A DNA stretch of 64,000 nucleotides from a virus (IMGVR_UViG_3300029258_004290:22915-86914), one strand, 5' to 3'; numbered from the stretch's first letter, positions 7,204 to 26,584 are shown. Translations and numbers: made by a program. The notes: generated by a model from the sequence alone, not told the origin.

Positions 7204-7557
7204 ATGGAGGCGAGGCTGACCCTCGACCTGAAGATCCAGGGGACCGGCGCGGCGACGGACCAGCGCCTGGACAAGGTCATAGACTCCGTGCAGTCGCTCG
7301 GGAACGGCCTGACCGTCGTGAAGGACGTGACGGTCGCGACAGGCGGCGGCGACGTGGCGATCGACCTCACGCAGGTCGCCACGGGCACGACGCTGCTCGT
7401 GAGCGCGCCCGCCGCGCTGAGCGCGAAGGTCAACGGGGGCCCGGCCGTCCAGTTCGGGCGGCTGCTCGTCATGCACTACGATGCGGCGGTCACGTCCCTG
7501 GTCCTGGTCAACGACACCGCGGCCGACGTGACCGCGACCGTGGCGGCGGCGTCGTGA
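7204..7557 (+). CDS. putative small virion structural protein (beta-rich)
   Basis: AAGGAGG RBS; Val/Thr/Ala-rich beta-type sequence. Confidence 0.65.
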   Translation: MEARLTLDLKIQGTGAATDQRLDKVIDSVQSLGNGLTVVKDVTVATGGGDVAIDLTQVATGTTLLVSAPAALSAKVNGGPAVQFGRLLVMHYDAAVTSLVLVNDTAADVTATVAAAS

Positions 7558-9405: not shown

Positions 9406-9787
9406 CACCGCGCTGTCGCTGAGGGCGACGCTGCGCAAGGCGAAGGCGATCGGGGGCGGGCGGTTCGGCCTCGTCCGGCAGAAGAGGACGATCTCCCGCG
9501 CCGGGGGGACGTTCCAGACGACCGTCTACGTCCGCCCGGACAGGAAGGAGGCGAGGGCGATCAAGCCGGCGAAGGCCAGCGGCGCACCCGGGGTCGCGGC
9601 GCAAGCGAAGTCTGACGCGCTGAAGACGCAGAGGGCCCGCAAGGAGCGCTTCGACAAGGTGTACTCCGAGTACAACCAGGCGCTGGCGAAGCTGAGGCCG
9701 ACGGACAAGACGGCCGCGGCGGAGACGCTCCGCGCCATGCACCGGGGCCTGCAGCTGGCGAAGAACATCCTAGAGGGAGGCGGCTGA
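9389..9787 (+). CDS. tagged head-associated protein 4
   Basis: AAAGGAG RBS; LRKAK...GLVRQKRTISRAGGTFQTTVYVRP. Confidence 0.8.
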   Translation: MSAGIDTALSLRATLRKAKAIGGGRFGLVRQKRTISRAGGTFQTTVYVRPDRKEARAIKPAKASGAPGVAAQAKSDALKTQRARKERFDKVYSEYNQALAKLRPTDKTAAAETLRAMHRGLQLAKNILEGGG

Positions 9788-11625
9788 TGAGCATCGAGAG
9801 GGAGCTGATCCGGCGCGACGCGCTGCGGAAGGCCCGCCGGGGCTGCGGCGCGGGGAACGCCGTCGCCGGCAGGGGCGGCAGGCCGCTGACCGAGGAGGAG
9901 CGCCGCAGGCGCCACAAGCGCCTGACCGGCGAGGACGAGCCGCCCCCGCGCGGGGCCGGCCGCCGCGAGGGGCTGAGGAAGGCGAGGGGCCGCGAGGGCC
10001 TCACGCCGCAGAAGAAGACCGTCACCAGGGGCGGCAGGACCTTCCAAACGACCGTGTACGTTCGCTCGGGTGAGAAGCCGGCCGGCGACGGGGGCAAGAA
10101 GGACAAGGCCGCCAGGGAAAAGGCCGGCTACGTGTTCCGCAACCGCGCCGCGCGGAGGATCTTCAGCCGAATGGAGAAGTTCGCCCCGGACCCGTTCGGC
10201 AACAAGGCGGACCGCGCGGCGTGGGACGCGGCGGAGAAGGCCTGGGTCGACGCCACGGTCGCCGGGGCCACCAAGACCCCGGCCGACGACGCGGCGGTCG
10301 CGGCCGCCAAGAAAGCGCGCGCCGCGCACGCCGGCGAGGAGTTCAAGGAGAAGGGCGCGCGGGAGATGAAGTTGTCCGCGGAGGGAAAGACCGGCGTGAA
10401 GCAGGGCGAGGCGGCGGAACCGGCAAAGTGGTCCACGGCGGGGGTCGCCAGGGCCGCCGCGAGGGACGCGGCCAGGAAGATGCTCGCCGGGGCCAAGGCG
10501 GGCCCAAAGGAGTCCGGCGCGGAGGCGGCCGGGCGCCGGGACAGGGAGGCCGAGGCCCTGGCGAAGAAGATCGAGGGCGCGGTCGCCGCCGAGATCAAGG
10601 GCCTGGACCCGAAGAAGTCCGCGACGCTGAGCGCGGCGATGCGCGTCGCCAGGGCGGAGGCGGTCCGGGAGTCCGGCGGCGTCGCCAGCGCCTCGCAGGC
10701 GCGGGACGAGATCGATGACCCCTTCGTGACGGAGGTCAGCCAGGAGATGGGCCTCGAGGTTATGTCCATCCTGGGCATTGAGGAGCCGGCCGGGAAGTCG
10801 TTCGACGAGGCGTACGCCGCCGGCCACAACGCCTACGTCGCGGCGAGGATGGCCGGGCGGTCTGTGAAGCAGGCCGAGGGGGACGCCGTGTCCGCCGCCG
10901 CCGCCATGGCGGAGCGGATGAAGGAGGAGGACCCCTACGACGAGTTCCGGGAGCGGCGGGTCGCCGAGGCGCAGGCGCGGGCGAAAGGGAAGGCCGGCGG
11001 GCCGAAAGCCGCGGCCAGCAAGAAGAAGATGGAAGGCATGACCGTCGGCGAGTGGATGTCCGAGGGCCGCCCGCGGCGCCCGTCGCCCAGGAAGAGGGGC
11101 CCGGCCGCGCCGTGGCTCGGGCCCGCGGAGAAGTCCACGGCCATCGGGCGTGAGCTCGGCCGCAGGGAGGCCCCAAAGGGCGGAAGGGCCCCATCCAAGG
11201 AGAAGGGGACCTATGAGGAAAGGATGCACGCGAAGTTCACGGGCGCGCTCCCGAGGGACGAGCGGCGGGCCGAGTACTACAAGAAGAACATCAACCGCCT
11301 CAAGAATCTGTCGGCGAAGGGCAACGAGACGGCGTGGGAGACGGTCGCCGACATGGAGCTGGACAGGGCCTTCGGCTTCCCGAAGGGTGTGACCATGCGG
11401 ATCAGGAAGACCGGCAAGGGCTGGTTCGCCGTCGCGGACGCCACGCGCGTCTCCACCTACAACAAGACGCCGGAGGGGGCGCTCGGCAGCGCGCTGCATT
11501 GGCGGAAGATCGGCCGGACGGAGTATGGCAAGAAGAGGCCAGAGGCCAGGAAGTCCACGGCCATCGGGCGCGAGCTCGGCCGCAGGGAGGCCCTGCGCAA
11601 GGCCAGGCTGAGGGGGCTGATATGA
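9787..11625 (+). CDS. tagged head-associated protein 5 (612 aa, Ala/Lys-rich)
   Basis: TGATG coupling; LRKARGREGLTPQKKTVTRGGRTFQTTVYVRS. Confidence 0.8.
   Translation: MSIERELIRRDALRKARRGCGAGNAVAGRGGRPLTEEERRRRHKRLTGEDEPPPRGAGRREGLRKARGREGLTPQKKTVTRGGRTFQTTVYVRSGEKPAGDGGKKDKAAREKAGYVFRNRAARRIFSRMEKFAPDPFGNKADRAAWDAAEKAWVDATVAGATKTPADDAAVAAAKKARAAHAGEEFKEKGAREMKLSAEGKTGVKQGEAAEPAKWSTAGVARAAARDAARKMLAGAKAGPKESGAEAAGRRDREAEALAKKIEGAVAAEIKGLDPKKSATLSAAMRVARAEAVRESGGVASASQARDEIDDPFVTEVSQEMGLEVMSILGIEEPAGKSFDEAYAAGHNAYVAARMAGRSVKQAEGDAVSAAAAMAERMKEEDPYDEFRERRVAEAQARAKGKAGGPKAAASKKKMEGMTVGEWMSEGRPRRPSPRKRGPAAPWLGPAEKSTAIGRELGRREAPKGGRAPSKEKGTYEERMHAKFTGALPRDERRAEYYKKNINRLKNLSAKGNETAWETVADMELDRAFGFPKGVTMRIRKTGKGWFAVADATRVSTYNKTPEGALGSALHWRKIGRTEYGKKRPEARKSTAIGRELGRREALRKARLRGLI
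11130..11593 (+). repeat. 44-bp direct repeat (11130-11173 and 11550-11593, one mismatch)
   Basis: GAAGTCCACGGCCATCGGGCG(T/C)GAGCTCGGCCGCAGGGAGGCCC, encoding KSTAIGRELGRREA twice. Confidence 0.9.
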
Positions 11626-12323
11626 CCGCCGACCAGGTCCGGCGCCGGCTGGCGCTTCTCGGGGAGCTGCGGAAGGCGAAGGGCCGGGCGCACGGCCGCG
11701 GCCACCTCGTCCCGCAGCAGAGGACCGTCATCCGCATGGGGAAGCAGGTGCAGACGACCGTGTGGGTGAGTCCGGGGGAGGCCGGGCCGACCGCGGAGGG
11801 CGAGGCGAAGCCGGCGGAGAAGAAGACCGGCGCCGACAAGCCGCAGGCCTCCCCGGTGTGGGAGGGTCCGGCGAAAGGGAGCGCGCAGTGGTGGGTGAGG
11901 CTCCGCCACGAGTGGGACTACTCCGGGCTCGGCCCGAGGGTCGCCGCCGTGCTCGGCAAGGTCGGGGGCGCCTCCGCCGAGGACTACGACGCCGCGGAGG
12001 GCCGCGTCATGGAGAAGTGGTACGCGGCCTACGATGAGGAGGAGCCGAAGAAAGCGGACCCCGTGGCCATGCGCGCCGCCAGGGCGGAGGCGAAGAGGCT
12101 GGCGAAGCCCGCGCCGAAGAAGGACAAGTTCGCGGAGTGGCAGAAGGCCTCCGACAAGGCGTGGCCCACCGTCGACCGCGTCGCCAGGGACCACGGCCTG
12201 GGCAAGGAGGAGCGCGGCCGGTTCCACACGGAGCTGTCCAATGCGATCATGGAGGGGAAGCCGACCGGCCCGATCGTCGGCAAGTACATCCCGAAGAACC
12301 CGGCCGTCCGCCACCGCTACTAG
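11622..12323 (+). CDS. tagged head-associated protein 6
   Basis: ATGA coupling; LRKAKGRAHGRGHLVPQQRTVIRMGKQVQTTVWVSP. Confidence 0.8.
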   Translation: MTADQVRRRLALLGELRKAKGRAHGRGHLVPQQRTVIRMGKQVQTTVWVSPGEAGPTAEGEAKPAEKKTGADKPQASPVWEGPAKGSAQWWVRLRHEWDYSGLGPRVAAVLGKVGGASAEDYDAAEGRVMEKWYAAYDEEEPKKADPVAMRAARAEAKRLAKPAPKKDKFAEWQKASDKAWPTVDRVARDHGLGKEERGRFHTELSNAIMEGKPTGPIVGKYIPKNPAVRHRY

Positions 12324-12488
12324 CAGGCACAACCTGCCCCCCTCGCCCGAAGCCAGGGCCGGGGAGCCAAAATAGCTACAGACTAGCCCCGCGGGCTCGG
12401 ACCCGGCGCCGTCGCAGTGGCGCGGCAGCCGGGCAACCGCGCGCGCCCGCAGAGGCGGGCGAGGCGAGCCGGGGGCAAGGAGAGTGGA

Positions 12489-13535
12489 ATGCTGCCTTCG
12501 ACAACGACACTGACCGCGAAGCAGCAGGACCGCCTCGACCGCATGTGCCCCGCCGGGCACAACGCGGCGATCGGGACGGTCGTGCGCGGCGTCCAGACGG
12601 ACATCGCAGACCTGCTGGGCTCGGCCTACGGGCCGGGGCTCACGCTCTACGTCGACGGGAAGTACGGGTCCGACGACGTCACCGTCGCCGCCCCGAACCG
12701 CTACCCCGCGAGCGCCGTCAACCACGGCACCACGTGGGCCACGGCGTTCAAGACCATCCAGGCCGCCCTGACGGTCGCGAGGGGCGCGGGCACGGGCTCC
12801 AACCCGGCGCTCGACAGCAACTACGACCAGGACCACCACGTCACGGTCGTGGTCGCGCCCGGCAACTACGCCGAGAACCTCATCATGGTCGGCGCGGGCA
12901 TCCGCCTGGTCGGCATCGGGGTCCCCGGCACGGACCGCGGCGTGAGCGTCACGCCCCCGGACATGAGCGGGAGCTACCCCGGGTCGATGATCGTCCAGGG
13001 GTCCGGGCTCGAGATCGGGAACATCCTGCTCGTCAACAACTTCGCCTACCCGACCATGTGGTTCGACAAGATGCACTCCAGCTGGGTGCACGACGTCGTC
13101 TTCTACGGGGACGGGGACGCGACGAAGGCGTTCACCACGAACGGGATGAAGAACTCGATCCTGGAGCACTGCCGGATCAGCGAGTTCTCGGCGGCCGGCA
13201 TCGAGGTCAATTACGACGCCAGTTCGCCCGACTACCTGATCGGGTCCCAGATCCGCCACAACCGGATCGGCCAGGGCTCGGGGACGGGCATCCTGGTCGA
13301 CGTCAACCTCGTCGCCTACGACAGCTCGATCTACGACAACACGGTCATCGGGGCCCTGACGCTTGGGATCGACAACAACGCCACCGGCCCGATCGCGATC
13401 CACGACAACTTCGCCTGTATCGTCGACAACACGGCGCCGATCGAGAGCGCCTCGACCATCGGCGGGATGCACCGGAACGCGGTCGTCTACAACGCCAACG
13501 GGACGCGGACGTTCCCGTTCCCGGCGAACGCGTAG
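12489..13535 (+). CDS. right-handed beta-helix (pectin lyase-like) protein, putative head fibre/decoration
   Basis: AAGGAG RBS; LYVDG.., G.TWATAFKTIQAAL, VAPGNYAE, repeated I.HN.I / GI.V beta-helix rungs. Confidence 0.75.
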   Translation: MLPSTTTLTAKQQDRLDRMCPAGHNAAIGTVVRGVQTDIADLLGSAYGPGLTLYVDGKYGSDDVTVAAPNRYPASAVNHGTTWATAFKTIQAALTVARGAGTGSNPALDSNYDQDHHVTVVVAPGNYAENLIMVGAGIRLVGIGVPGTDRGVSVTPPDMSGSYPGSMIVQGSGLEIGNILLVNNFAYPTMWFDKMHSSWVHDVVFYGDGDATKAFTTNGMKNSILEHCRISEFSAAGIEVNYDASSPDYLIGSQIRHNRIGQGSGTGILVDVNLVAYDSSIYDNTVIGALTLGIDNNATGPIAIHDNFACIVDNTAPIESASTIGGMHRNAVVYNANGTRTFPFPANA

Positions 13536-13570
13536 GCGCGCCGGAAGCCCGAGGAAAGGAGAACAGGACA

Positions 13571-13750
13571 GTGAAGACGGAAAAGGTCCACGACGAGAAG
13601 ACGGCCGCGGAGGTCGCCGCCGGATTCCGCAAGAGCGGCGTCGGCATGGCCCCCGAGCAGGCCGGGAAGATGTTCCCGCCCCCCTCCGAGGAGGCGCAGG
13701 CCGCGGCGAAGCCCGAGGCCGCGAAGAAGAAGGCCGGCGGGAAGAAGTAG
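13571..13750 (+). CDS. small hypothetical protein
   Basis: AAAGGAG RBS before GTG; 59 aa. Confidence 0.55.
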   Translation: MKTEKVHDEKTAAEVAAGFRKSGVGMAPEQAGKMFPPPSEEAQAAAKPEAAKKKAGGKK

Positions 13751-13959
13751 CACAGCCTTCGGCGCCCCCTTGGGGGGATTGACCGGGGGGTAGGCATCTA
13801 GCACTGCCTCCGGGGCCCGTCCGCGGGCCCCCCTCGCCGCCGCCTCCCCGCGCCCGCCTAGGCCACGGGGACCCGGAACCCGCCGGATCGCGGGCCGGGA
13901 TGCGGGGGGCGGCGAGGAAGACCCGCGGGCCGACAGAACAAAGGAGAGAAGGGGAGAGC

Positions 13960-15588
13960 ATGGCGACCAAGAGCCTGAAGGACATAGGGAGCCCCGGCAA
14001 GCTGCTCGCGCAGCTGACCACCGGCGGCTTCGTCCCGTTCGCGGAGGGCGTGCGCCGGCGCGTGATGCGCGTCAGCTTCGCCGTCCTCGAGCGGATGGCC
14101 GACCGCAACCCGATCGCGAACGCGATCGTCAACAAGCGGTGCCAGCAGGTGCGGCCGTTCTGCCGCGTCTCGACCGACCCCGCGGAGAGGGGCTTCTCCA
14201 TCCAGCCGAAGTCCGGCCTCACGCCGAAGATGAAGGAGGGGAAGAAGCCGCGGCGCATCGTCGAGCTCGAGGACTTCGTGATGAACACGGGGTTCGCCTA
14301 CGAGCCCGACAGGGAGGACGACTTCCCGGACTTCGCGCAGATGCTGGTCCGCGACGTCCTCACCTTCGACCAGAACGCGACGGAGCTGCGCAGGACGAAC
14401 GCCGGCAAGGTCTTCGACTACTGGTACATCGACCCGACGACCATCGCCCGCGCCGTCCCGATCGGGGGCGGCCAGGTGCACCACCCCTCGCCCGCGCCGG
14501 TCGGCGGGAAGGGCGCGGCATCGGCCACGCTCCGCTCCTGGATGGAGAGGGCGCGGGGCCCCAAGGGCCGGGACGTGCGCTTCGTGCAGCGCGAGCTGCA
14601 GAACAACCGGACGAAGATCACCGCGACGTTCACCGCGGAGAACATGATCTTCGACTACATGTACAAGAGGAGCCGGCAGCAGTACCGGGGCTACGGCTAC
14701 TCGCCGCTCGAGCAGTGCATCGACACGGTGACCACGCTCCTGTTCGGACTCACCTACAACAAGGACCTCTTCATACGCGAGCGCCTGCCCAAGGGCTTCC
14801 TCAAGGTCATGGGCGACGTCGACGCGGCGACGCTCCGGGCGGTGAAGAACGCCTGGGTCGCGGAGATGACCGGCTACGGGGCGAAGTTCCGCGTGCCGAT
14901 CATCCCCTCCGGCAAGGAGGGCGTCGGGATCGACTGGCAGGCGCTCGGCCAGTCCAACCGCGACATGGAGTACACCAAGCTCCTCCACCTCATCATTTCC
15001 ATCATGTGCGCCGTCTTCACCATCGACCCGATTGAGATCGGGATCAAGACGGACCTCGCGCCCCAGGGCCTCGGGCACTCCGGCACTAAGCCGAAGATCG
15101 AGGAGAGCAAGGACACCGGGCTCGGCGCGCTCCTCATGTACATCGAGACCTACATGAACAAGATCCTCCACAAGGTGGACGAGGACGTCGTCTTCAAGTT
15201 CACCGGCGTGAAGGAAGGGGACGCCAAGAAGAAGGCGGAGCTGCGGGAGATGCAGATCAAGCAGAGCCGGAGCGTCGACGACTTCCGCCGAGCCGACGGC
15301 CTCGAGCCCTACGAGGAGCTGTGGAGCAGCATCCCGCTGCGGCCCGAGATCGTGCAGCTGGTCCAGGCCGAGAAGCAGGAGCAGCAGATGGCCGCGATGG
15401 GCGGCGGGGCGCAGCCCGGCGGCGGGGAGGAACCCGCGGACGAGGGCGGGGACGGCGGCGAGGGCGGCCGGTTCTCCTGGGAGGTCGGCGAGGGGGACGC
15501 CGAGCTCGAGGGCGGGGCCGCGGAGAAGTCGCTAGCCTCCCTCGAGGACGCGCTCTTCAAGGGCGGGCCGTTGGAGGTCGTCATCTGA
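13960..15588 (+). CDS. portal protein
   Basis: YGYSPLEQC..., LF...LPKGFL, W..LGQSNRDMEY, AVFTIDPIEIG motifs typical of SPO1/Twort-like portals. Confidence 0.9.
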   Translation: MATKSLKDIGSPGKLLAQLTTGGFVPFAEGVRRRVMRVSFAVLERMADRNPIANAIVNKRCQQVRPFCRVSTDPAERGFSIQPKSGLTPKMKEGKKPRRIVELEDFVMNTGFAYEPDREDDFPDFAQMLVRDVLTFDQNATELRRTNAGKVFDYWYIDPTTIARAVPIGGGQVHHPSPAPVGGKGAASATLRSWMERARGPKGRDVRFVQRELQNNRTKITATFTAENMIFDYMYKRSRQQYRGYGYSPLEQCIDTVTTLLFGLTYNKDLFIRERLPKGFLKVMGDVDAATLRAVKNAWVAEMTGYGAKFRVPIIPSGKEGVGIDWQALGQSNRDMEYTKLLHLIISIMCAVFTIDPIEIGIKTDLAPQGLGHSGTKPKIEESKDTGLGALLMYIETYMNKILHKVDEDVVFKFTGVKEGDAKKKAELREMQIKQSRSVDDFRRADGLEPYEELWSSIPLRPEIVQLVQAEKQEQQMAAMGGGAQPGGGEEPADEGGDGGEGGRFSWEVGEGDAELEGGAAEKSLASLEDALFKGGPLEVVI

Positions 15589-15589
15589 C

Positions 15590-17419
15590 ATGAGGCCCCT
15601 GACCCTCATACCCAGGCCGCGCAGCGCCCTGAGGAAGGCGTTCGGCAAGCAGGCCGACCCCGACTTCACGGTCAAGCGCTTCTCCGACGGCAACTATCAC
15701 ATGAAGGTCCCCGGCAAGGGGTGGATGAAGCTCGGCAAGGACCGCGCGCGGGCGGAGGAGTTCGCCAGGAAGCGCAGGGCAGGCGGCGGCGAGAAGCCGC
15801 AGGCCAAGGTCGGCCAGACCGTCCGCATCAGGGGGAGCGGCCGCGGGTCGCTCGGCCGGGGCGTCGTGGGGAAGATCAAGGAGATAGGCCAGGGGTTCGT
15901 GCGCGTGGCGGACGAGGCGGGGCGCGTGTTCCGCGTCAAGACGCCCGCGCTCGCCCTGGCCAAGGCCGCGCCGCCCCCCGAGCCCGGGCCGTCGGGCCCC
16001 CTCGCGCTGTACAAGGCGCGGCCCGGGCTGGTGCGCCAGGCGCGCCTGGCCGCGCGGGGCGGCCGGACGTTCCGGACCCACGTGTGGGTGAGGCCCGGCG
16101 ATCGCCCGGCCGCGGCGGGGGGCTCCCGCGCCGCCGCCGTCAAGGAGTGGCTGAAGAGCCGCTCCTCCCTCGAGGTCGAGACGCTGTCGCCGGCCGAGGC
16201 GGCGTCGGTCCTCAACTCCCTCGGGACGGACCCGGACCGCCTGCACGCGGCCAGGGAGCCGGCGAACGCCGCGCACGCCGTCGGCAGGATCGCCGCGTCC
16301 GCCCTCGTCCGCCGGGCCGCGGGGCAGGACCTCTCCGCATTCCGCTCCCGCCTCGAGGACCTCGAGAGGGCCACCGGCGACGCGGTGTGGAACATGGACA
16401 TCCGCGAGGAGGCGACCCTCTACGACCCCTCCTCCTCCGAGGAGGACGTGGCCTACGCCATGATGGGCGCCTGGGGCAGCTCCACCAACAAGGTGGCGGC
16501 AGTGATGCTGCAGGAGGCCGCGGCGGAAGAGTTGCTGGGGGTAACCAAGTTCCGCGTCTGGCAACGGCACAACATGCCGGCGGTCAGGGACGAGGAGGCC
16601 AGGAGGCTGGAGGCCGAGGTAGTCCGCGCGCAGAAGGCCTGGCAGGTGACGCCCGCCAACACCCCCGAGTCTGCGGCGGCCTTCGACGAGCTGGACGGGC
16701 GGAGGGCGGCGCTGCACCGCCATCAAGACGCGGCACGGGCCAGCGGCACGAGGGCCTACGTGCCCCCGGAGGTGTTCGCCAGGGCGCGCCGCGCCGTCCG
16801 CGCCATGTGGGGGCGGACCCAGGAGGAGCTCCGCACGAGGCCCCCGTGGTCCCTCGAGGCCCAGGGAAGGGAGCGGGCGTGGCGCGTGGCCTGCAACACG
16901 GCGGCGATCCGGCTGCAGGACGTCCCGGGGTCCGCCGACGTGCTGGCGCGAATGGCGACGGCCGGCTCCAACGCGGCCGCCACGATGCGGGACTACTTCG
17001 GGGAGGTACCGGCCGACTGGTCCTCCCCGTCGGCGGAGGCCCCACGGCGGGTGCTGGCGGAGGCGCATTCGCTCATGGCCGGCGCCGTGGAGGAGGGGCG
17101 CGACCCGTTCGACGAGGAGACGTTCCGCCGGTGCGCGGCAGCCGTGGCGGAGGAGCTGACGCGGAAGCGGCCGTTGCTGCTGTATCGGGGCGTGACGCAG
17201 GACACCGTCGCCGGCAACGTCGTGGAGAGCTGGTCCACGTCGCGGAGCGTCGCCCGGCAGTTCGACGGCTACGACATCCTCGAGGACGCCGGCGTGCCGT
17301 ACGGCCGGATCCTCGCGTTCTGGGGGTCCGACAGCAAGCTGGCCAGGAACAACCTGCACCACGGGGAGAAGGAGTTCCTGCTGCTGTTTGACGACCCGGG
17401 AGAGGGCGGCCGGCCGTGA
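15590..17419 (+). CDS. tagged head-associated protein with C-terminal ADP-ribosyltransferase-like domain
   Basis: Tag LYKARPGLVRQARLAARGGRTFRTHVWVRP; C-terminal LLYRG..ESWSTS..GEKEFLLL (R-S-E). Confidence 0.8.
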   Translation: MRPLTLIPRPRSALRKAFGKQADPDFTVKRFSDGNYHMKVPGKGWMKLGKDRARAEEFARKRRAGGGEKPQAKVGQTVRIRGSGRGSLGRGVVGKIKEIGQGFVRVADEAGRVFRVKTPALALAKAAPPPEPGPSGPLALYKARPGLVRQARLAARGGRTFRTHVWVRPGDRPAAAGGSRAAAVKEWLKSRSSLEVETLSPAEAASVLNSLGTDPDRLHAAREPANAAHAVGRIAASALVRRAAGQDLSAFRSRLEDLERATGDAVWNMDIREEATLYDPSSSEEDVAYAMMGAWGSSTNKVAAVMLQEAAAEELLGVTKFRVWQRHNMPAVRDEEARRLEAEVVRAQKAWQVTPANTPESAAAFDELDGRRAALHRHQDAARASGTRAYVPPEVFARARRAVRAMWGRTQEELRTRPPWSLEAQGRERAWRVACNTAAIRLQDVPGSADVLARMATAGSNAAATMRDYFGEVPADWSSPSAEAPRRVLAEAHSLMAGAVEEGRDPFDEETFRRCAAAVAEELTRKRPLLLYRGVTQDTVAGNVVESWSTSRSVARQFDGYDILEDAGVPYGRILAFWGSDSKLARNNLHHGEKEFLLLFDDPGEGGRP

Positions 17420-20400
17420 AGCGCCGCGCGCTCCGGGGCCTCGGCGGCCGGCGGGTGGAGGTCCTGACGCCCGAGACCGAGGCCGACGCGGCCCGCCTCG
17501 CCTCCGCGGCGGCGGCGGGGGAGGCCGACGGCCGCGCCTCGTTCGGCGACGGGCGCCCCCTGCGCAAGGCCCGCCGCGGGATGGTGCTGGGTAGGCGCGG
17601 CCGCCTGGTCCCCGAGAAGCGGACCGTCACCCGCGGCGGCAGGACGTTCCAGCAGACGGTGTGGGTCCGGCCGGGCGAGAGGCCGAAGGCGCCGGCAACG
17701 GCGGCCGCGGTGGCAAGGGCGATCGAGCCCGTCGTGGCCGAGGTGAAGCGCATGGCCCCGAAGTGGCTGGCCTTCCGGCAGCAGGGAGAGCCCGCCTGGG
17801 GCGGCAAGCGGAAGAAGGAGACGGCCGCGGGCCTCGCCAGGTCCGCGATGCACGACTGGGACATCGGCAAGCAGGTGACGGCGATCCTCCGGAAAAGACC
17901 GAGGCTGGCGGCGGCGTTCTTCAACGACATGGAGGGCGTCAACCGCGAGCTGAAGAGGCAGACCGGGCTCGCGATGGACTACGCCCGCTTCGGCGAGATT
18001 GACCTGCTGGACACGATGAAGGCGGCGGCCGCCTCCGGTGAGAGCCTCGCCGGGTTCCGCGCGCAGGCGAAGGGGCTCGGCGAGAGGTACGACAAGGGCC
18101 GGATCATCGACAACCCGCGCTACGACCGCGGGCTGCGGTGGGTCGCCACCATGCACGACCCGACCTCGACGACCGAGGAGATCCAGCACGCGATGCTCGC
18201 GCAGTGGGAGCGTGGCGGCCTCGGGGCGAACGCGGTCACGCACCAGATCGTGCAGAGCGCGTTCGCCGGCAAGCCGGTCCGGGACGCGGGCATCCCCGAC
18301 GTTATGGTGGAGAAGGCGAAGCACGCTGTCCTCGACCTGTATCGCCGGACCCAGGACGCGCTGCGCGCCAGGGGCGAGAAGAAGATCCGCCTCTATCGCG
18401 GCGTACAGACGATGGCGGGCGGCAACATCCTCGAGAGCTGGACCCCGGACGAGGAGATGGCCACGTTCTTCGCCAACATCGGCAAGTTCAAGGGCAAGGT
18501 CCGGCGCGGGAACATCCCGGCCGCGCGCGTCCTGGCGACGTACGACACGCCGCCGGGCGAGGGCATCCTCCGCGACAATGAGCAGGAGTACATGGTCCTG
18601 ACCAAGCGGCCCGACGCGTTCGGCAAGAGCATGGCGTGGATCCTGGAAAAGGCTCGAGCCGGCCTGGTGCAGCGCGAGGTCCAGGTCAAGGGGCGGCGCA
18701 GGTTCTACTTCGCGAAGCGCTGGGTGAAGGTCGGGCCGGAAGAGGACGACCTGGAGCCGATGGCGCTCTCCACCATGCCGAAGCCGGTCGGCTACATCAC
18801 GCCGTCGGGGAACGTCCGCCGGCTGAGCAAGGCGGGCAGGTACGGCTGGGGCAAGGCGTCGAGGGCGCAGCTCGAGCGCTGGCGCGACGTCATCACCGGG
18901 AAGGCTGCGCCGGAGACCGAGGCGGAGCGGCTCGGCCGCCGGGAGTACGAGGCCGGCGAGTACGGCGGCACGCCGCCGGGGTACGAGCACAAGCATGGCA
19001 AGATGCCAGACGGGAGCCCGCCGCCCGGGGACGGGAGCAGGGCTACGCCGGAGCGGATGCTCGCGGAGTGCCCGAAGATCGGCGAGGCGCTGCGGAACAT
19101 GGCCGGGCCCTGGGACTACCTGGGGTCGCACGGCGACCAACGGATGTTCTTCGACGCGTACTCGGGAAAGGACGCCGTCCCGGTCGAATACCAGGACCGC
19201 TTCTGCCAGGACTACGAGTTCGCGTTCAAGACCTGGCGCGCCGCGGCCCCTGACGGGAGCCCGCGAAGGGGGATCCCGACGCCGCACGAGCTCGTCTCCA
19301 AGCTGCCCGGGGTCAAGGGCGTGCTCGGCCGGCTGAAGGGCGCGCAGGTGAAGAAGGCGGCGAAATGGCTGTGGGACCACCTGGCGTCGGTCGCGTGGGG
19401 CAGCTTCGTCAAGGGCGTGAAGACCGTGACCGAGGCGCAGCGCGCCCAGGCCGACGCGTGGATCGCGGCCTTCAAGGACCCGGAGGGGATGGGCATCTCG
19501 TACGCCGGGGCCCGCGCGCTCGCCCTCTACTCCGACGCGTGCCACCGGGAGGCGGAGGCGCAGAGCTACACGAAGCAGCGGACGAAGCGCCTGGTCGCGG
19601 GGATGAAGAACGCGGAGGGCTACGACTTCGCCGGCAGGCAGATCACGCCGAAGGAGGCGAAGGGGATCGACGCCATGCTCGGCCGGATAAGGGGCCTGGT
19701 GCCGAGCGCGAACCGCCTGGCCACGGCGTGGCAGCTGCGGGTCAACGTCATCGCGCTCGGGTCGATCAAGGGGCCGACGGGCCAGGGCGTCGCGGGCCAG
19801 TACTGGCCCGACCTCGGGCCGGAGGACGCCGCCGGCGAGCCGGAAACCTGGCGGAAGAGGGGCGTCAAGTCCCGCGAGCTGGACCTGGACTACAAGCACA
19901 CCTACGCGGTCGCGCACGAGCTCATGCACTCGTGGGACGACGCGGCGAAGAAGGGCATCGCCGTTGACCCGGGCGCCGGCGCCCCGAAGGCCAGGGGCTC
20001 CATTGGCTGGAAGTTCCGCGAGCTGATGGGCGACGCCATGGTGGAGAACGGCACGCTCGCCCGGTGGTACCGCTTCGGCACGGACGCGGCCATACCGACG
20101 ACCGCGAACGAGCGAGAGTACCGCGACGCGTCCGATAAGCTGGCCTACGCGGTCGGCGAGCCGGAGGCCTCGATCACCGCGCAGCTCGTGCGTTTCACCC
20201 ACACGAAGCACGGAAGCCGCGTCAAGACCCTCGACGCCGTGAGCAAGGCGTTCCGGAAGGCTGCCACGGAGGCGGGCCTGACGGAGAGCGAGAGCGGCGT
20301 GTTCTGGAAGGACGTGCGTCACACGTGGGAGGCGCGGCGGTCGCCCTTCGCCCGGCTGGTCCGCACCAAGTACGGGACGCGCAAGGAGACCGTCTACGAG

Positions 20401-22170
20401 ACCCTGCAGCGCGAGAAGAACTCCGGCGCGTACCTCTGCAGCACGGCGGAGTATACGGCGCGGTTCTTCGAGCAGTACGCCGCGTGGAAGCACCGCGGCA
20501 AGGAGATCGACGGGCCGGCCGGGTTCCTCAAGTGGGAGCGGTACCTCCGGCGGTCGCACTACTTCACCGAGGCGGAGTTCAAGGCGCTGCTCCCCCACTT
20601 CAAGGCCGCGTGCAGGGAGCGGATGGGCGAGAAGTTCCTCAAGTCGCTCCTCCGCCGGCTCACGCTGCTCCTGAAGGGCAAGGGCTTCCCGGTCGGGACC
20701 ATCCGGAAGATGGCCGGCCTGTGGCACAAGAAGCTCCCGACCGGGAAGTGGTGGCCGCTGAAGAAGGACGAGGTGAAGGCGCACGAGGCCATGCTCAAGG
20801 AGAAGGGCCTCCTGAAGCCGGGCGAGGAGCAGAAGCCGCGCAGGCGGAAGAAGAAGGGCGAGGCGCAGGACAAGGCGCCGCCGCCCCCGCCGGGGCCGGT
20901 CGGCGAGATGGCCGCCGCGATCGTGAAGAACAACCCGAGCGCCGGCAGGATCAAGCCGACGCCGGGGGCGACGTCCCAGAACTACGCCGTCCCCTACGAC
21001 TACGGCCAGCTCCTCGCCGAGTACACGAAGGACGACCCGGACCTCGCGGCGTCCGTGCTCAACGACCTCGAAGGGACGATGCGCGCCATCGCCCAGGCGT
21101 CGGGCGGCGTGAGCCCCCCGAACAGCGGCGCCTTCGCCGCGCTTCTCAACCGCATCACCGACTCAAACCTGCAGGCGATGCTGCTGGCCGCCCACAAGGG
21201 CGGGAAGTCGCTCGCCGGCCTCCGGGCGAAGATGCCGGCGTACGCGAAGCTCACCGGCAACAAAGAGTGGGACCTGCAGCGGAGGGAGTGGGCGACGTGG
21301 CCCGACCCGATGTCATCCAGGCAGGACGTCCACTACGCCATGCTCGGCGCCTGGGGCTCTAGCTCCGGGAAGCCGGGCGCGGTGCTGCTGCAGCAGACGG
21401 TCGGCGAGGTGCTCCTCGGGCGGAAGCCGTTCATCTGGCAGCACCTCGTGGCGAAGAAGGGCAAGGGCGGCAAGTTCCCCATCCACCCGAAGGTGCGCGA
21501 GACCGCGAAGGACGCGGTGCGCTGGCTGTACGCGCAGACGCAGCGGAGGCTCAAGGAGGTCGATGACATCAAGACGCTCCAGGACCTGGACTACAGGGGC
21601 AAGGACGCCGCCGCCCTGATGGACGCGGTCGGCGCGGAGCTCACGAGGGACATGCCGCCCGGCGACGCCAAAACCAAGCGCCTGGAGATCTACGCCGAGG
21701 TCGCCAAGTCGCTGCCGCGGGAGTACCCGACCTTCTTCGTATCCGAGCAGAACACCGTGCAGGTCATGCAGGCGATCGTGGCGATCGCCGCGGAACCGCT
21801 CAAGGCGGCCGGCCTGGACCAGCCGTACGGCATCGAAGTGACCGTCAGGAACGCGCTCAGGAAGGCCATGAAGGGGACGGCGGCGAAGGCCGGGTCGAAG
21901 GACAGGCTGGTCCTGTTCCGCGGCGTCAAGGCCCCGACCGTCGCGCGCAACGCCGTCGAAAGCTGGACCCGCCGCAAGTCCACCGCCGACAGCTTCGACC
22001 ACCACAAGGTGTTCCGCGAGGAGGTCCCGCTCTCGCAGATCCTTGCGTTCCCCAAGACCGACAGCAAGCTCGCGGCGAACGAGGGCAAGTACGGAGAGGA
22101 CGAGTTCCTCCTCCTAGCCACACCACCGCTCGAGCACCTGGCCACGCAGGCCAAGGAGGCGCACTCATGA
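17416..22170 (+). CDS. large polyvalent protein: ART - HExxH peptidase/LPD1-like - ART
   Basis: Three tag segments; LYRG/ESWT/NEQEYMVL; AHELMHSWD plus YLCSTAEYTARFFEQY; LFRG/ESWT/GEDEFLLL. Confidence 0.85.
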   Translation: MKRRALRGLGGRRVEVLTPETEADAARLASAAAAGEADGRASFGDGRPLRKARRGMVLGRRGRLVPEKRTVTRGGRTFQQTVWVRPGERPKAPATAAAVARAIEPVVAEVKRMAPKWLAFRQQGEPAWGGKRKKETAAGLARSAMHDWDIGKQVTAILRKRPRLAAAFFNDMEGVNRELKRQTGLAMDYARFGEIDLLDTMKAAAASGESLAGFRAQAKGLGERYDKGRIIDNPRYDRGLRWVATMHDPTSTTEEIQHAMLAQWERGGLGANAVTHQIVQSAFAGKPVRDAGIPDVMVEKAKHAVLDLYRRTQDALRARGEKKIRLYRGVQTMAGGNILESWTPDEEMATFFANIGKFKGKVRRGNIPAARVLATYDTPPGEGILRDNEQEYMVLTKRPDAFGKSMAWILEKARAGLVQREVQVKGRRRFYFAKRWVKVGPEEDDLEPMALSTMPKPVGYITPSGNVRRLSKAGRYGWGKASRAQLERWRDVITGKAAPETEAERLGRREYEAGEYGGTPPGYEHKHGKMPDGSPPPGDGSRATPERMLAECPKIGEALRNMAGPWDYLGSHGDQRMFFDAYSGKDAVPVEYQDRFCQDYEFAFKTWRAAAPDGSPRRGIPTPHELVSKLPGVKGVLGRLKGAQVKKAAKWLWDHLASVAWGSFVKGVKTVTEAQRAQADAWIAAFKDPEGMGISYAGARALALYSDACHREAEAQSYTKQRTKRLVAGMKNAEGYDFAGRQITPKEAKGIDAMLGRIRGLVPSANRLATAWQLRVNVIALGSIKGPTGQGVAGQYWPDLGPEDAAGEPETWRKRGVKSRELDLDYKHTYAVAHELMHSWDDAAKKGIAVDPGAGAPKARGSIGWKFRELMGDAMVENGTLARWYRFGTDAAIPTTANEREYRDASDKLAYAVGEPEASITAQLVRFTHTKHGSRVKTLDAVSKAFRKAATEAGLTESESGVFWKDVRHTWEARRSPFARLVRTKYGTRKETVYETLQREKNSGAYLCSTAEYTARFFEQYAAWKHRGKEIDGPAGFLKWERYLRRSHYFTEAEFKALLPHFKAACRERMGEKFLKSLLRRLTLLLKGKGFPVGTIRKMAGLWHKKLPTGKWWPLKKDEVKAHEAMLKEKGLLKPGEEQKPRRRKKKGEAQDKAPPPPPGPVGEMAAAIVKNNPSAGRIKPTPGATSQNYAVPYDYGQLLAEYTKDDPDLAASVLNDLEGTMRAIAQASGGVSPPNSGAFAALLNRITDSNLQAMLLAAHKGGKSLAGLRAKMPAYAKLTGNKEWDLQRREWATWPDPMSSRQDVHYAMLGAWGSSSGKPGAVLLQQTVGEVLLGRKPFIWQHLVAKKGKGGKFPIHPKVRETAKDAVRWLYAQTQRRLKEVDDIKTLQDLDYRGKDAAALMDAVGAELTRDMPPGDAKTKRLEIYAEVAKSLPREYPTFFVSEQNTVQVMQAIVAIAAEPLKAAGLDQPYGIEVTVRNALRKAMKGTAAKAGSKDRLVLFRGVKAPTVARNAVESWTRRKSTADSFDHHKVFREEVPLSQILAFPKTDSKLAANEGKYGEDEFLLLATPPLEHLATQAKEAHS

Positions 22171-22811
22171 GGCTCATAGTCTTCACCAAGGCGAAGAAGG
22201 AGACCGCCCCCTCGTCCCGGCCGCCGAAGGGCTGGTGGGAGAGGGTCACGGCCGCTCTCGGGGGGGAGAAGGGCGTCAAGTCGGTCCGCCGCCTCGCCGG
22301 CTGGATTTGGTACCACGGGATCAAGACCGGCAAGGGCCGCCAGGAGCGGCGGAAGGCCGAGGGGAAGACGTACCGGTGGCGCGAGGGCGAGAAGAAGAAG
22401 GGCACCAGGAAGTCCCTGGCCGCGGTCTTCTCGCCGTCCGCGATGCGTAAGTCCCGTGTCGGCGAGGAGGACTTCGGCAAGAAGTTCGCGGCCCTGGTCA
22501 AGAAGGGCGACCTGTCCGACGAGACGTTCCACGCCTGGGCCAAGCGCCAGGGCTGGGACGAGCACCGGGCCGAGGAGGCCGCGTACCGGATGCTCGCGTC
22601 CTTCCTGGGTGGCGGACTCGCCAGGAAGAAGGGCTTCACCGAGAAGGACGCCGACCCGAAGGAGCTCCGCCTGGGCGTCAAGGTCGAGATGGAGCACACC
22701 AACTCCAGGTGGATCGCGAAGCGCATCGCGCTCGACCACCTGGCCGAGAACCCGCGGTACTACTCCGAGGTCCTCCTGCCGGCCGAGAAGAGGGCGGGGT
22801 CAGCGCACTGA
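22167..22811 (+). CDS. hypothetical protein with C-terminal DUF5661-like domain
   Basis: ELRLGVKVEMEHT...AKRIALDHLAENPRYYS. Confidence 0.7.
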   Translation: MRLIVFTKAKKETAPSSRPPKGWWERVTAALGGEKGVKSVRRLAGWIWYHGIKTGKGRQERRKAEGKTYRWREGEKKKGTRKSLAAVFSPSAMRKSRVGEEDFGKKFAALVKKGDLSDETFHAWAKRQGWDEHRAEEAAYRMLASFLGGGLARKKGFTEKDADPKELRLGVKVEMEHTNSRWIAKRIALDHLAENPRYYSEVLLPAEKRAGSAH

Positions 22812-23300: not shown

Positions 23301-24395
23301 ATGGGGAAGGAGAGGGAGCTGACGCTCCGCGTCCGCCTGGACGGCGACGACGGGGAGCGGCGCGCCAGGCTCGCCAGGGGCGTGGCCGTCATGGCCAAGG
23401 CGCTCCGGACGCGGGCCAAGATTAGCGACGGCGACCCGCAGGCGCACCAGAAGGAGGTGCCCCTGCCGGTCGTCGCGGAGGTCGAGGAGGAGTTCAAGCG
23501 GCTCGGGCACGCGATCGGTCAGGAGCTCGCGGTCCTGGTGGCGAGGCACACGGGCCTGCTGTCCAAGGCTGCGGCCCCGTTCAGGCTGGGGACGAGGGTC
23601 TTCGTCGACCCGGCGACCGGCAAGCCGCTCACCCAGCGGCAGTGGAACCGCCTGACCAGGGCGATCGACGGCTACATCAAGCAGAGGATCGGCGGCGCGG
23701 CCGAGCGCCTGGTCGCGCGGCAGACGGCGCTCGGGGCCATCACGCAGCGGCTCGAGGCGCGCGGCCAGGACCCGGAGGCGCTGAAGCTGGCGGACATCCG
23801 GCAGCCGCTGCCCGCGTCCGCGAAGGCCGCGTCCGCCATCTTCAAGGAGGCGGCGCTGGCGGCGCGGCCCGCGTTCAACACCGAGCGGACGGCGCAGTAC
23901 GTGACCTCCGCCTCGGAGAAGATGCGGAACGACATCAAGCGCGTCATCAACGACGGTCTGTCGCAGCGGAAGGGCCGGGGCCAGATGGCCCAGGAGCTCC
24001 TCGAGCTGCGGGGCAAGTGGAACCGGGACTGGGACCGGATCGTCGAGACCGAGAGCCAGGACGCCTTCAACGACGGGTACCTGGCCTCGGAGCTCGACCA
24101 GGCCGACCCCGGGGAACCGGTCTACATGGTCGGGAAGGGGGCGGCGAACGCCTGCCCGGTCTGCCGGCGGGACGTCGTCGGCCGGGTGGTGCGGCTCCTG
24201 CCCGGCCCCCCGGAGGGCGGAGGGGAGAAGATTCGCGACCCGCACACGGACACGGCCATCTGGCCCGGGAAGTCGAGCGTCGGGCACGGGGCGAAGGAGT
24301 CGTACGCCGTCATCACGCGGCACCCCTGGTGCTGCTGCCGCTGGGCCAGGACCTACCCAGAGGACATCGAGTTTGAGAACACGCCGGCCCCGTAG
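23301..24395 (+). CDS. MuF-like minor head (head morphogenesis) protein
   Basis: RDWDRIVETE..AFNDG, ACPVC, HPWCCCRW (HPxCRC-type) between portal and protease. Confidence 0.8.
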   Translation: MGKERELTLRVRLDGDDGERRARLARGVAVMAKALRTRAKISDGDPQAHQKEVPLPVVAEVEEEFKRLGHAIGQELAVLVARHTGLLSKAAAPFRLGTRVFVDPATGKPLTQRQWNRLTRAIDGYIKQRIGGAAERLVARQTALGAITQRLEARGQDPEALKLADIRQPLPASAKAASAIFKEAALAARPAFNTERTAQYVTSASEKMRNDIKRVINDGLSQRKGRGQMAQELLELRGKWNRDWDRIVETESQDAFNDGYLASELDQADPGEPVYMVGKGAANACPVCRRDVVGRVVRLLPGPPEGGGEKIRDPHTDTAIWPGKSSVGHGAKESYAVITRHPWCCCRWARTYPEDIEFENTPAP

Positions 24396-24443: not shown

Positions 24444-24833
24444 ATGTCGAACCAATGGAAAAAGGATCATCCCGAGAAGGCGCGCGAGATTGGAAGGGCG
24501 GCGTCCGCCCGCTTTCGCGTTAAGCATCCGCGCCGGCACAAGGACCAGTACATCCGCTGGAAATACGGTATCAGTTTGAAGGAGTTTGAGACCCTGCTCA
24601 AGGCTCAGGGGTATTGCTGCGCTATTTGTGGTGGCAATCTACGTGGGCGGCGGAGAAAGAACATCGACCACGACCATGAGACCGGTGAAGTGCGCGGGGT
24701 CCTCTGCTATGCCTGTAACTTGATGCTCGGGTTTGGGCGGGATAACCCGGAAACCCTGAGGCGCGCTGCGAAATATCTCGAAGCCGAGAAAGGGTCCGTC
24801 CTCTGGCTGGTAAGGAGCGAGGCCAATGGATAA
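24444..24833 (+). CDS. free-standing endonuclease VII-type (HNH-like) homing endonuclease
   Basis: KYGISL.EF..LL..Q...[31 protein letters not shown]; AT-richer than flanks. Confidence 0.88.
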
Positions 24834-25698
24834 ATACGCGTATATCACTCTGCCGTCCATTCTCATTAAGGCAGATAAAAAGGAGAAGGACATCCTCTAT
24901 TTGGAGGCGTCCAATCCGCAGGTTGACCAGCAAAGAGAGAAGGTGCTGCCATCCGCGCTTGAAGACGAGGCGCACAACTTCCTCAAGTCCGGCGTCATTA
25001 GCTGGGATCACCAGCACAAAATCCGTCAAGACCCGTCTTACATCATCGGGGAGCCCCTCGACGTCCGTGTCGGGAAGAAGCGCGCAACCCTGGTGAAGGC
25101 GCGGATCTACCGGGACTGCCGGTACGGGAGGGCGGTGCTCGAGCTCGCGAAGTCCGCGTGCACCCGCCTGGGCGCCAGTATCGGCGGCTTCATTGTGAAG
25201 AGGGTCACGCAGTTCGACGCGGCCCTGAAGAAGTCCATCCCCACGATCGCGAAGATCCTGTGGGACGAGGTGGCCATCACCCATCGGGCCGTCAACGCCG
25301 CGACCGCGGCGGCCGGCGGCGGGCAGGGCGTGTCGATCACGCCCTTCGCGGAGTTCGCGAAGAGCTGGATCCTGGACGAGGCCGAGCGGGCGGAGGTCAT
25401 CAAGGGCCTGACCGCCGGCTACGGGACGGACGCCGCGGCGTACGCGGGCGGCCGCGCCCTCCAGAAGGAGAGCCTCATGGGGGCGAAGGAGCCGATGGAC
25501 TCGCAGCACCGCCGGCACCTGCAGGGGGCGTTCGTGGACCTGCTGCGCCACCTGTCGACCGGGCAGGTGCGGCACTACGGGGATTTGACGAGGGTGCTCC
25601 GCGCCCACGGCGCGGAGGACGCGGCGGACGAGGCCGCGAAGCTCATCGTGGAGAATAAAGACCGACTCAAGCGCATGCTACCAACCATAAGGAGGTAA
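24826..25698 (+). CDS. prohead protease
   Basis: [39 protein letters not shown] (His/Ser assemblin-like motifs); position before scaffold and capsid. Confidence 0.85.
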
Positions 25699-25705
25699 GA
25701 ACGGC

Positions 25706-26584
25706 ATGGACGTGACGAAGGAAGCCAGGGACCTGGCGCGCCTGCTCAAGTCCGCCGCGGGCGGCGAGGCCGCCGCGGAGGCCGAGGCCGAGGAGTCGCC
25801 CACGCGGGCGGCGTTCGACCAGGCCGCCGAGGAGCTCCGGAAGGCCGCGGGCCTCCCGGGTCCCGAGGACGAGGACGAGGAGACGGACGCCGGCGACGAC
25901 GACGCGGAGGAGGCCCCTGAGGCCGACGCCGACGACGAGGCAACCGAGGAGAGCGGCGAGGACGCCGCCGACGACACGGAGCCGACCCCGGAGAACCTGA
26001 AGAAGGCCTGGGACGACTTCATGAAGAAGAAGAAGAACGGGAAGAAGAACGGGAAGAAGGGCAAGAAGGACAACGAGGACGACGACGACGAGGAGGACGA
26101 GGCCTACAAGTCCCGCGCCGTCGCCGAGACCGTCGCCGCCGACCCGGAGGCCGAGGCGGCCATGGACATCGAGCCCTTCCTCAAGGCGCTCGTCCACGGC
26201 ATCGACCGCCGGCTCGACGCGATCGAGGCGACCGTCGCCAAGGCCGCCAAGGCCCAGGAGGCGGTGTTCGCGGTCCAGAAGAGCGCGGCGGGCCTGGCCC
26301 TGTCGCACGGCGACCTGGTCCGCGAGGTCCACGAGGTCGTCTCCGCGGCCGGCGGCCAGCCCGCGGAGCGCCGCGGCAGGCTCCGCGTCGTCGAGCGCTT
26401 CGGGAAGAGCGCCGCCGAGGACGGCGCCGACTACGACCCCCAGGAGGCGAAGGCCAAGCTGCTCGAGCTCGCCAAGAGCAAGGCGCTGTCGCCGGAGCAG
26501 ATCGGGGTCTGCGAGATGCGGATCAACCACGGGCAGGAGCTGCCCGCCTACTTCGCGAAGCACTTCGCCGGGTCCGGCGAGTAG
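25706..26584 (+). CDS. capsid scaffolding protein
   Basis: Acidic/coiled; between protease and capsid; many hydrophobic-x-K|S/A sites. Confidence 0.75.
   Translation: MDVTKEARDLARLLKSAAGGEAAAEAEAEESPTRAAFDQAAEELRKAAGLPGPEDEDEETDAGDDDAEEAPEADADDEATEESGEDAADDTEPTPENLKKAWDDFMKKKKNGKKNGKKGKKDNEDDDDEEDEAYKSRAVAETVAADPEAEAAMDIEPFLKALVHGIDRRLDAIEATVAKAAKAQEAVFAVQKSAAGLALSHGDLVREVHEVVSAAGGQPAERRGRLRVVERFGKSAAEDGADYDPQEAKAKLLELAKSKALSPEQIGVCEMRINHGQELPAYFAKHFAGSGE

Follow-up and report, generated by a model that had tools for sequence, protein, structure and literature searches.

A gene of 1584 codons within the head module of an uncultured phage raises two questions: how so long a protein was assembled, and what the repeated joints inside it are for. 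The window studied here is the whole 64,000-nucleotide stretch of DNA analysed, IMGVR_UViG_3300029258_004290:22915-86914. It comprises bases 22915-86914 of an 86,914-bp IMG/VR virus record that is complete and has direct terminal repeats; the source is a complete 86.9-kb uncultured phage. The window is ~70% G+C and transcription is nearly all from the + strand. The gene in question (positions 17416-22170, + strand; product P0001) encodes three cassettes in series: an ADP-ribosyltransferase (ART), a zincin metallopeptidase and a second ART. They are divided by two joints that repeat the beginnings of neighbouring single-cassette genes. We argue that these joints may be sites of action for the phage prohead protease.

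The open reading frame (ORF) has a GTG start, which overlaps the stop codon of the upstream gene (GTGA). It is free of stops and has a GC3/GC2 pattern typical of a coding frame. A first reading of the window, from the sequence alone, had proposed a three-unit polyprotein here; we refer to it as the original prediction. The ORF is real, and each motif quoted in that prediction lies exactly where it was placed: PLRKARR at residues 48-54, AHELMH at 19912-19929, YLCSTAEYTARFFEQY at 20431-20478, the first linker at residues 402-439 (18619-18732) and the second at residues 1074-1115 (20635-20760). The three-part build, ART / zincin with LPD1 / ART, is borne out by motifs, alignments and structure matches, the LPD1 region by way of homologous units. 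A single polypeptide thus carries at least two distinct enzyme domains, as polyvalent proteins do. Direct searches found little. Searches for homologs by word index, with the 1584-residue protein and with the adjacent gene 15590-17419, returned the queries themselves only, and tblastn against 50,697 phage records gave no matches. Pfam and PHROGs, searched with the protein and its three parts, gave nothing except a match to the Pfam family DRAT below threshold (16 bits, where 25 are required).

Units 1 and 3 are paralogous ARTs of the R-S-ExE type, resembling Alt and VIP2, with predicted activity. The two units match each other in BLASTP (E 1e-12 and 3e-5). The unit 1 ART (residues 248-396; 18157-18603, + strand) contains R328, S341 and E389-x-E391, has no large insertion, and was placed by homology to the model of unit 3. 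The unit 3 ART (residues 1297-1574; 21304-22137, + strand) contains R1502, S1516 and E1561-x-E1563. It is split by a helical insertion of ~110 residues (1388-1498; 21577-21909) and was delimited with an AlphaFold2 (AF2) model and structure matches. Unit 3 also matches the product of gene 15590-17419 (E 3e-36), which by sequence is a stand-alone paralog of this unit; unit 1 is likewise paralogous to it. We aligned five ART copies, three from this phage and one from each of two homologous proteins, P0003 and P0004, described below. The R (L[YF]RGV), S (ESW[ST]) and ExE motifs are invariant in all five.

The AF2 model of unit 3 has a mean predicted local distance difference test score (pLDDT) of 69. 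In an all-against-all comparison with VIA-align it matched five R-S-E ARTs: 8za7_B (a Listeria ART-ARH toxin), CPILE-a, ART2.2, Vis and C2-I. The Z scores were middling (4.7-5.3), with 120-125 residues aligned, and the matches cover model residues 244-515 but skip 329-439, the helical insertion. Because the five matches agree with one another and with the motifs, we accept the ART assignment despite the middling scores. Other comparisons were weaker. Foldseek with the same model pointed to ExoS (probability 0.75, E 0.19), and neither the unit 2 nor the unit 3 model gave anything at E <= 0.001 against PDB and BFVD; lists consistent with one family came solely from VIA-align. Fold matches to VIP2-like phage proteins were weak (E 0.03-0.07), and a profile of the five ART copies found chance matches only among PDB sequences. 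The two ARTs had also been considered as MuF domains. This was rejected: no MuF domain was found in P0001, and the MuF-like protein is the product of a separate gene (23301-24395).

Unit 2 is, from its sequence and its modelled fold, a zincin metallopeptidase with an LPD1-like C-terminal helix region, and its activity is predicted. The AF2 model is poor (mean pLDDT 49). In VIA-align its core (model residues 335-500) matched PPEP-2 (Z 7.0), anthrax LF (6.7) and BoNT/A LC (6.0), followed by Wss1, collagenases and ADAMs; the list is almost all zincins. The core spans residues 714-879 (19555-20052, + strand), as placed by structure matches and an alignment of six peptidase units, and its H834-E-L-M-H838 motif is intact. 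E1012, conserved in all six aligned units, is likely to be the third zinc ligand, although the model is of low confidence. It lies in the LPD1-like C-terminal helices (20422-20643, + strand), which end in F-L-K1076. The YLCSTAEYTARFFEQY helix aligns with a region of P0003 and P0004 that Pfam calls LPD1 (PF18796; 33.3 and 31.1 bits against a cut-off of 27). The 1584-residue protein itself gave no LPD1 match even at E 5; the LPD1 domain of the original prediction therefore stands for the homologous units, not as a direct match.

Both joints follow one grammar: hydrophobic-x-Lys↓Ser, a short helix, hydrophobic-x-Lys↓Ala or Gly, and a β-hairpin tag of ~30 residues (the arrow marks the putative cut). 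Joint 1 (18619-18747, + strand) consists of F-G-K404↓S, the 8-residue helix SMAWILEK, L-E-K412↓A and the second copy of tag 1 (residues 412-444; E 3e-15). Joint 2 (20635-20784, + strand) consists of F-L-K1076↓S, the 11-residue helix SLLRRLTLLLK, L-L-K1087↓G and tag 2 (residues 1088-1123; E 3e-17). In AF2 models joint 1 is a helix followed by a β-hairpin, with low confidence, and joint 2 a helix and three short strands before a disordered Lys/Pro-rich stretch. The N-terminus of the protein is similar. Alignments show that its first 51 residues (17416-17568, + strand) hold the remnant of a KOW/SH3-like strand and a leader ending in L-R-K51↓A52. The first copy of tag 1 follows at residues 60-92 (17593-17691, + strand; domain E 7e-15 with the tag-1 hidden Markov model) and falls in DNA repeat family D2. 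The tag is basic and aromatic.

The same elements begin other genes nearby. With a tag-1 profile, seven genes of this genome were seen to hold nine copies between them (domain E 5e-8 to 4e-16), and no further match had an E value under 0.7; a tag-2 profile found the unit 3 copy and an N-terminal copy in gene 15590-17419 (E ~1e-17). Five more genes, all on the + strand, open with a leader, then L-x-K↓A, then tag 1 (7554-8219, 8219-8851, 9389-9787, 9787-11625 and 11622-12323). Gene 15590-17419 likewise bears a leader, L-x-K↓A and tag 1, which makes six neighbouring genes with the grammar. The leaders are 6-50 residues long and end in hydrophobic-x-K↓[ASG]. Tag profiles and alignment thus confirm that the internal joints repeat the leader, Lys site and tag of the neighbouring single-cassette genes. 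We looked upstream of Met406, in joint 1, for an internal ribosome-binding site and saw no convincing one. The resemblance of the joints to embedded gene starts supports an origin by fusion, or conversely fission, of tagged cassettes. The original prediction had the gene arise by fusion of tagged single-effector genes. Modular fusion or fission is well supported and gene 15590-17419 does encode one unit separately, but the direction cannot be told.

Homologous giant proteins show the same construction. An exhaustive HMMER search with unit 2 against 1.84 billion representatives found two true homologs only, P0003 (2626 residues) and P0004 (2102 residues). A search for related loci gave none for P0003. 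P0004 comes from a related phage, L007, and is encoded there on a contig of 22.9 kb. The capsid protein of L007 is 68% identical to that of the phage studied here (portal 53%, protease 54%, MuF-like protein 53%). The P0004 gene directly follows the portal gene, and in both phages the gene of the giant protein lies between portal on one side and protease, scaffold and capsid protein on the other. In more distant phages, whose capsid proteins are 26-31% identical, no homolog of the 1584-residue protein was present. The N-terminus of P0003 is homologous to the separate MuF-like gene (E 1e-36) and is followed by a 2H phosphoesterase domain. The latter (residues 654-763; PF13563, E 1e-13) weakly resembles the anti-CBASS protein Acb1 (E 0.002). 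Homologous units differ in number and order among the three proteins: P0004 reads short ART / unknown / Zn-ribbon domain / three peptidases, and P0003 reads MuF / 2H / two peptidases / Zn-ribbon domain / ART. The joint grammar is present at every unit boundary of both. The second Lys precedes Ala, Gly or Ser and then one of three interchangeable tags; the stretch between the Lys residues is hydrophobic or amphipathic, 8-17 residues long at most joints and longer at one joint of P0003. Homology between the 1584-residue protein and P0004 spans joint 2 and tag 2, and ends where the cargo differs. Comparison of these sequences gives good support to the view that cassettes are units of evolution, apparently fused, split, duplicated and reordered at the joints between related phages.

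Three smaller features of these genes were noted. Gene 15590-17419 encodes a small KOW/SH3-like domain (15809-15973; residues 74-128) between its tag 2 and tag 1, and the remnant that opens the 1584-residue protein is the last strand of this domain. The domain recurs twice in P0004, and also in P0012 and P0025, which are unrelated tag-bearing proteins. Gene 9787-11625 contains two 44-nt direct repeats (11130-11173 and 11550-11593; 98% identical, 420 nt apart). The second runs into a C-terminal A-L-R-K↓A with only seven codons after it, a 'dangling' leader, and P0004 similarly ends in a joint helix without a following unit. An exact A-L-R-K↓A is found at 21856-21870 (residues 1481-1485), a little ahead of the first strand of the ART in unit 3; a cut there would split the ART.

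A family labelled 'minor head protein and DNA pilot', phrog_4529, is matched by the peptidase unit of P0003 (E 7e-6). This match would suit a structural ejection or 'DNA pilot' protein, which would form a conduit or part of an internal body, and whose enzyme-like domains would be secondary or inactive. The long disordered basic spacers are compatible with such a role. There are also models for it: gp47 of phi24B, a protein of 2811 residues with LPD5, LPD1, LPD38 and MuF-C domains that was found in virions by mass spectrometry, is proposed to act as a conduit (bioRxiv 10.64898/2026.04.10.717836), as are ejection proteins of P22 and T7. However, the catalytic motifs (R, S and ExE; HExxH and Glu) are kept in every paralog and homolog, which argues for selection on enzymatic activity, and no membrane segments were predicted in the 1584-residue translation (judged by eye only). 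We therefore consider a purely structural role improbable.

What, then, might the Lys sites do? We searched for the loose motif hydrophobic-x-K-[ASG]. The phi812-type capsid protein in PDB entry 9row has 439 rather than 463 residues and starts right after V-V-K, at the position homologous to L-Q-K30↓A31 of the capsid protein encoded here. Two proteins of this phage are enriched in the motif: the prohead protease (7 found, 1.7 expected; z 4.2) and the scaffold encoded at 25706-26584 (8 found, 1.5 expected; z 5.8). No other gene is above z 3, save one small gene with just two sites. Protease and scaffold are the proteins classically degraded by prohead proteases. Within the first 40 residues the motif occurs in 10 of the 16 head-block genes and in 12 of 63 elsewhere (Fisher p 0.0012). 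The paired sites of the protease itself, F-A-K↓SWIL...V-I-K↓G, resemble F-G-K↓SMAWILEK↓A of joint 1. The original prediction had the prohead protease cut the paired sites to release three effectors. On this indirect evidence it is a coherent reading of these sequences that hydrophobic-x-Lys may mark a prohead protease site at the joints.

Since the joints are the same as the gene starts of the neighbours, we think it probable that the protein enters the capsid and is cleaved to give three enzymes that are injected. The cassette would comprise a short amphipathic leader, hydrophobic-x-Lys↓Ala, Ser or Gly, the β-hairpin tag of ~30 residues, a disordered spacer and the enzyme. First, the 1584-residue protein would co-assemble into the procapsid with about six similarly tagged neighbours. 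The prohead protease, acting on the same motif as in the capsid protein, would then cut both Lys sites of each joint, so that the leader peptides are excised and three tag-headed enzymes are freed. Lastly, these would exit together with the DNA, and their targets would be proteins of the host at an early stage of infection. Domains, recurring joints and gene context are what the sequences show, and from these we infer packaging, cleavage, injection and enzyme activity; for the whole sequence of loading, cutting at both joints and co-injection with the DNA, the chances seem to us about even.

The tag can be followed beyond these phages. A tag-1 profile run against 5.8 billion proteins found 23, many of them with effector domains of the polyvalent type. 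Tag 1 is combined with NUDIX, DNA ligase and an ART-like C-terminal end in P0007; with a DUF5661 N-terminal domain, MuF-C and InPase in P0012; with RadC and Zeta toxin in P0020; with PBECR2 in P0023; with an SNF2 helicase in P0024; and with NUDIX in P0025 and P0026. Of 20 external copies of tag 1, 16 are closely preceded by the Lys motif, where random windows of the same proteins give an expectation of 0.19 per copy (p 6e-9; some of the 20 copies are related to each other). A cultured carrier exists. M3_0224 (L036:9001-11619), an 872-residue protein of the herellevirus Lysinibacillus phage vB_LfM_LysYB1 (Spounavirinae), has tag 1 at its N-terminus, and its gene is directly upstream of the portal, protease and capsid genes. 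Its C-terminus resembles an H-Y-E ART by eye only, and in the LysYB1 capsid protein the homologous site reads L-N-K↓A. In L027, a different phage lineage, portal and protease both belong to other families (for the protease, PHROG 23555/80). Its stretch 8708-17955, between portal and protease, holds at least five tag-1 copies in three genes, with no Lys before the tags.

Several observations weigh against cutting by the prohead protease. In the 1584-residue protein the Lys motif is only mildly enriched (14 against 8.1 +/- 2.8 in shuffles). Ten matches fall outside the two joints: nine within units and the tenth at the end of the N-terminal leader. A weight matrix trained on N-terminal leaders only lacked discriminating power: it did not score the internal joints above shuffles, and its best match in the protein is A-L-R-K1483↓A, which is inside the unit 3 ART and is not conserved in the paralogs. 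Because this matrix failed at the internal joints, we do not claim the leaders as a recognisable sequence family, and rely on the Lys site and the tags. The linkers were expected to lie outside folded domains. They do lie outside the zincin and ART cores, but K1076↓S is modelled within a continuous helix, and with a mean pLDDT of 49 for unit 2 the placement rests on weak models. P0007, P0021 and the L027 phage carry tag 1 without the Lys, and the LysYB1 protein has it with neither leader nor Lys site. Finally, the polyvalent protein vRNAP of phage N4 is packaged uncleaved (PMC5512222), and the zincin of unit 2 is itself intact (HExxH and the conserved Glu) and of the enzyme type proposed to process polyvalent proteins (PMC5512222).

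The intact zincin, the tags without a Lys site and the failure of the leader matrix suit a packaged polyvalent protein that the prohead protease leaves uncut. It would be injected whole, or cut by its own zincin in the head or after injection, and the joints would be flexible docking or spacer modules. Iyer et al. (2017) proposed autoprocessing by the metallopeptidase (MPTase) domain, and ArdC and TraC1, like N4 vRNAP, travel uncleaved (PMC5512222). Against this reading, P0003 has two zincin units and P0004 three; such numbers exceed the needs of processing and suit an effector role. The neighbouring single-cassette genes share the leader and Lys site and have no zincin. The Lys motif is also the one at which the capsid protein appears to mature, is over-represented in protease and scaffold, and is kept beside most external tags. 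On balance we find a protein untouched by the prohead protease an unlikely, though not a negligible, alternative to cleavage at the joints.

If the prohead protease does cut at the joints, leader and tag could have separate roles. Since LysYB1, P0007, P0021 and L027 carry tag 1 but lack the Lys, the tag can evidently do its work where this cleavage site is missing. It would also stay on the products. For these two reasons we tentatively assign addressing to the tag and not to the leader, and release to the leader with its Lys sites. A wider proposal, which we advance tentatively, is that leader, Lys site and tag 1 form a portable and widely shared address-and-release code for loading capsids, in SPO1-like heads and some others. 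Under such a code arbitrary enzymes (ART, zincin, NUDIX, ligase, RadC, Zeta kinase, PBECR RNase, SNF2 helicase) could be loaded singly or chained and cut apart in the capsid. The 1584-residue protein would be a three-cargo example, and both the packaging of polyvalent proteins and their evolution by cassette shuffling would be explained.

Gene position bears on whether the protein is in the virion at all. It could instead be an intracellular multi-enzyme protein whose tag is a hairpin for nucleic-acid binding or oligomerisation, with an incidental location among head genes. The basic and aromatic character of the tag agrees with this, packaging rests on inference, and the motif enrichment in scaffold and protease could reflect composition. 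Conversely, the position between portal and protease is kept in three independent lineages (this phage, L007 and L027/LysYB1), the P0003 chain is fused to a MuF-like head protein, and tag 1 matches phrog_1917, 'virion structural protein'. A role confined to the cell is, on this evidence, very improbable.

The joint grammar combines two known themes, polyvalent proteins and T4-style capsid cargo. Polyvalent proteins (PMC5512222) are likewise giant, multi-domain and encoded among head genes, with a zincin MPTase as hub domain, an LPD1-type region, here recognised through the homologous units, and an ART, and they too are predicted to be packaged and injected. Relatives of the protein described here are fused to MuF-like, 2H and other conflict domains. 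The original prediction had stated that such proteins combine ART, metallopeptidase and LPD1 domains. This agrees with Iyer et al. (2017), who describe combinations of MPTase, ART and LPD domains, except that the ARTs reported there are of the HYD2 clade. Those found here have R, S and ExE motifs and folds matching R-S-E ARTs, not the H-Y-D/E of Tox-ART-HYD2. A second difference is that the units here are separated by a conserved Lys site/leader/Lys site/tag cassette, which also heads small single-domain genes. We found no description of this cassette in the text of PMC5512222, in Pfam or through literature searches.

In T4, Alt and IPI-III likewise have a short N-terminal leader that ends at the prohead protease motif, on unrelated cargo that includes an R-S-E ART. 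The same motif matures the T4 capsid protein, and the cargo is head-packed and injected, as is predicted here. The differences are that T4 gp21 removes the targeting sequence at Leu/Ile-x-Glu↓ rather than hydrophobic-x-Lys↓, that a conserved tag after the site would here stay on the product, and that cassettes here are chained with paired sites. The head of this phage is SPO1/phi812-like, and the likeness to T4 is one of analogy; no sequence relation was found. MuF-VIP2 fusions of the Microbacterium phages Percival and Goodman (PMC7302621) and MuF polymorphic toxins (PMC5576092) similarly join an R-S-E-type ART to a portal-proximal head-morphogenesis module, with modular C-terminal effectors and a predicted place in the virion. 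Here, unlike there, the MuF-like gene is separate and several effectors have tagged joints; similarity to MuF-VIP2 is limited to the weak VIP2-like fold matches.

The ejection proteins of SPN3US, phiKZ and 201phi2-1 (PMC10052503) resemble the present case, as predicted, in forming paralog families of many internal head proteins, each with multiple prohead-protease cuts. Their motif ends in Glu, however, and the cuts mostly remove long propeptides instead of separating independent enzymes; a shared tag after the site is not described for them. phi24B gp47 is also a giant LPD1-bearing protein, in its case shown in the virion. It differs in being reported as a single large ejection protein, with neither joints nor ARTs described, from a podovirus with an uncleaved capsid protein.

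Since polyvalent proteins were recognised in 2017, their route to the capsid, and whether they act whole or in pieces, has been open. The 1584-residue protein and its neighbours offer a concrete sequence grammar, which links a capsid maturation protease, a conserved tag not modelled in Pfam and variable host-modifying enzymes. If the grammar holds, it would help to annotate many unexplained proteins of phage head modules and account for cassette shuffling at joints, and the T4 capsid targeting sequence would have a second natural signal for loading capsids beside it. LysYB1, a cultured carrier of tag 1, makes the grammar practically testable.

The head module has the order portal (13900-15588), gene 15590-17419, the 1584-codon gene, DUF5661 (22167-22811), MuF-like (23301-24395), endonuclease VII (24444-24833), protease (24826-25698, + strand; phrog_1028), scaffold (25706-26584) and capsid protein (26620-28011, + strand; phrog_752). 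The gene at 15590-17419 (+ strand) encodes 609 residues: a leader, tag 2, the KOW-like domain, Lys sites, tag 1 and an ART with insertion. The MuF-like protein weakly matches phrog_2468, 'head morphogenesis' (E 0.003). Endonuclease VII is encoded between the MuF-like gene and the protease gene; in L007 there is no gene at that spot, which makes it probably a mobile insertion. The DUF5661 protein opens with an 8-residue hydrophobic leader up to Lys↓Ala (MRLIVFTK↓A), and its L007 ortholog starts similarly. The scaffold-like protein is acidic, and one of its eight motifs, an N-terminal R-L-L-K↓S, is conserved in L007. The capsid protein is of the SPO1/phi812 type, and L-Q-K30↓A31 is its predicted maturation site. 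In the protease, residues 185-217 (25378-25476) contain the paired Lys sites, after which LTAGYGTD...GGRAL nearly repeats the N-arm of the mature capsid protein. Lys sites and N-arm are arranged alike in the protease of L007, and phrog_1028 also matched capsid residues 25-59.

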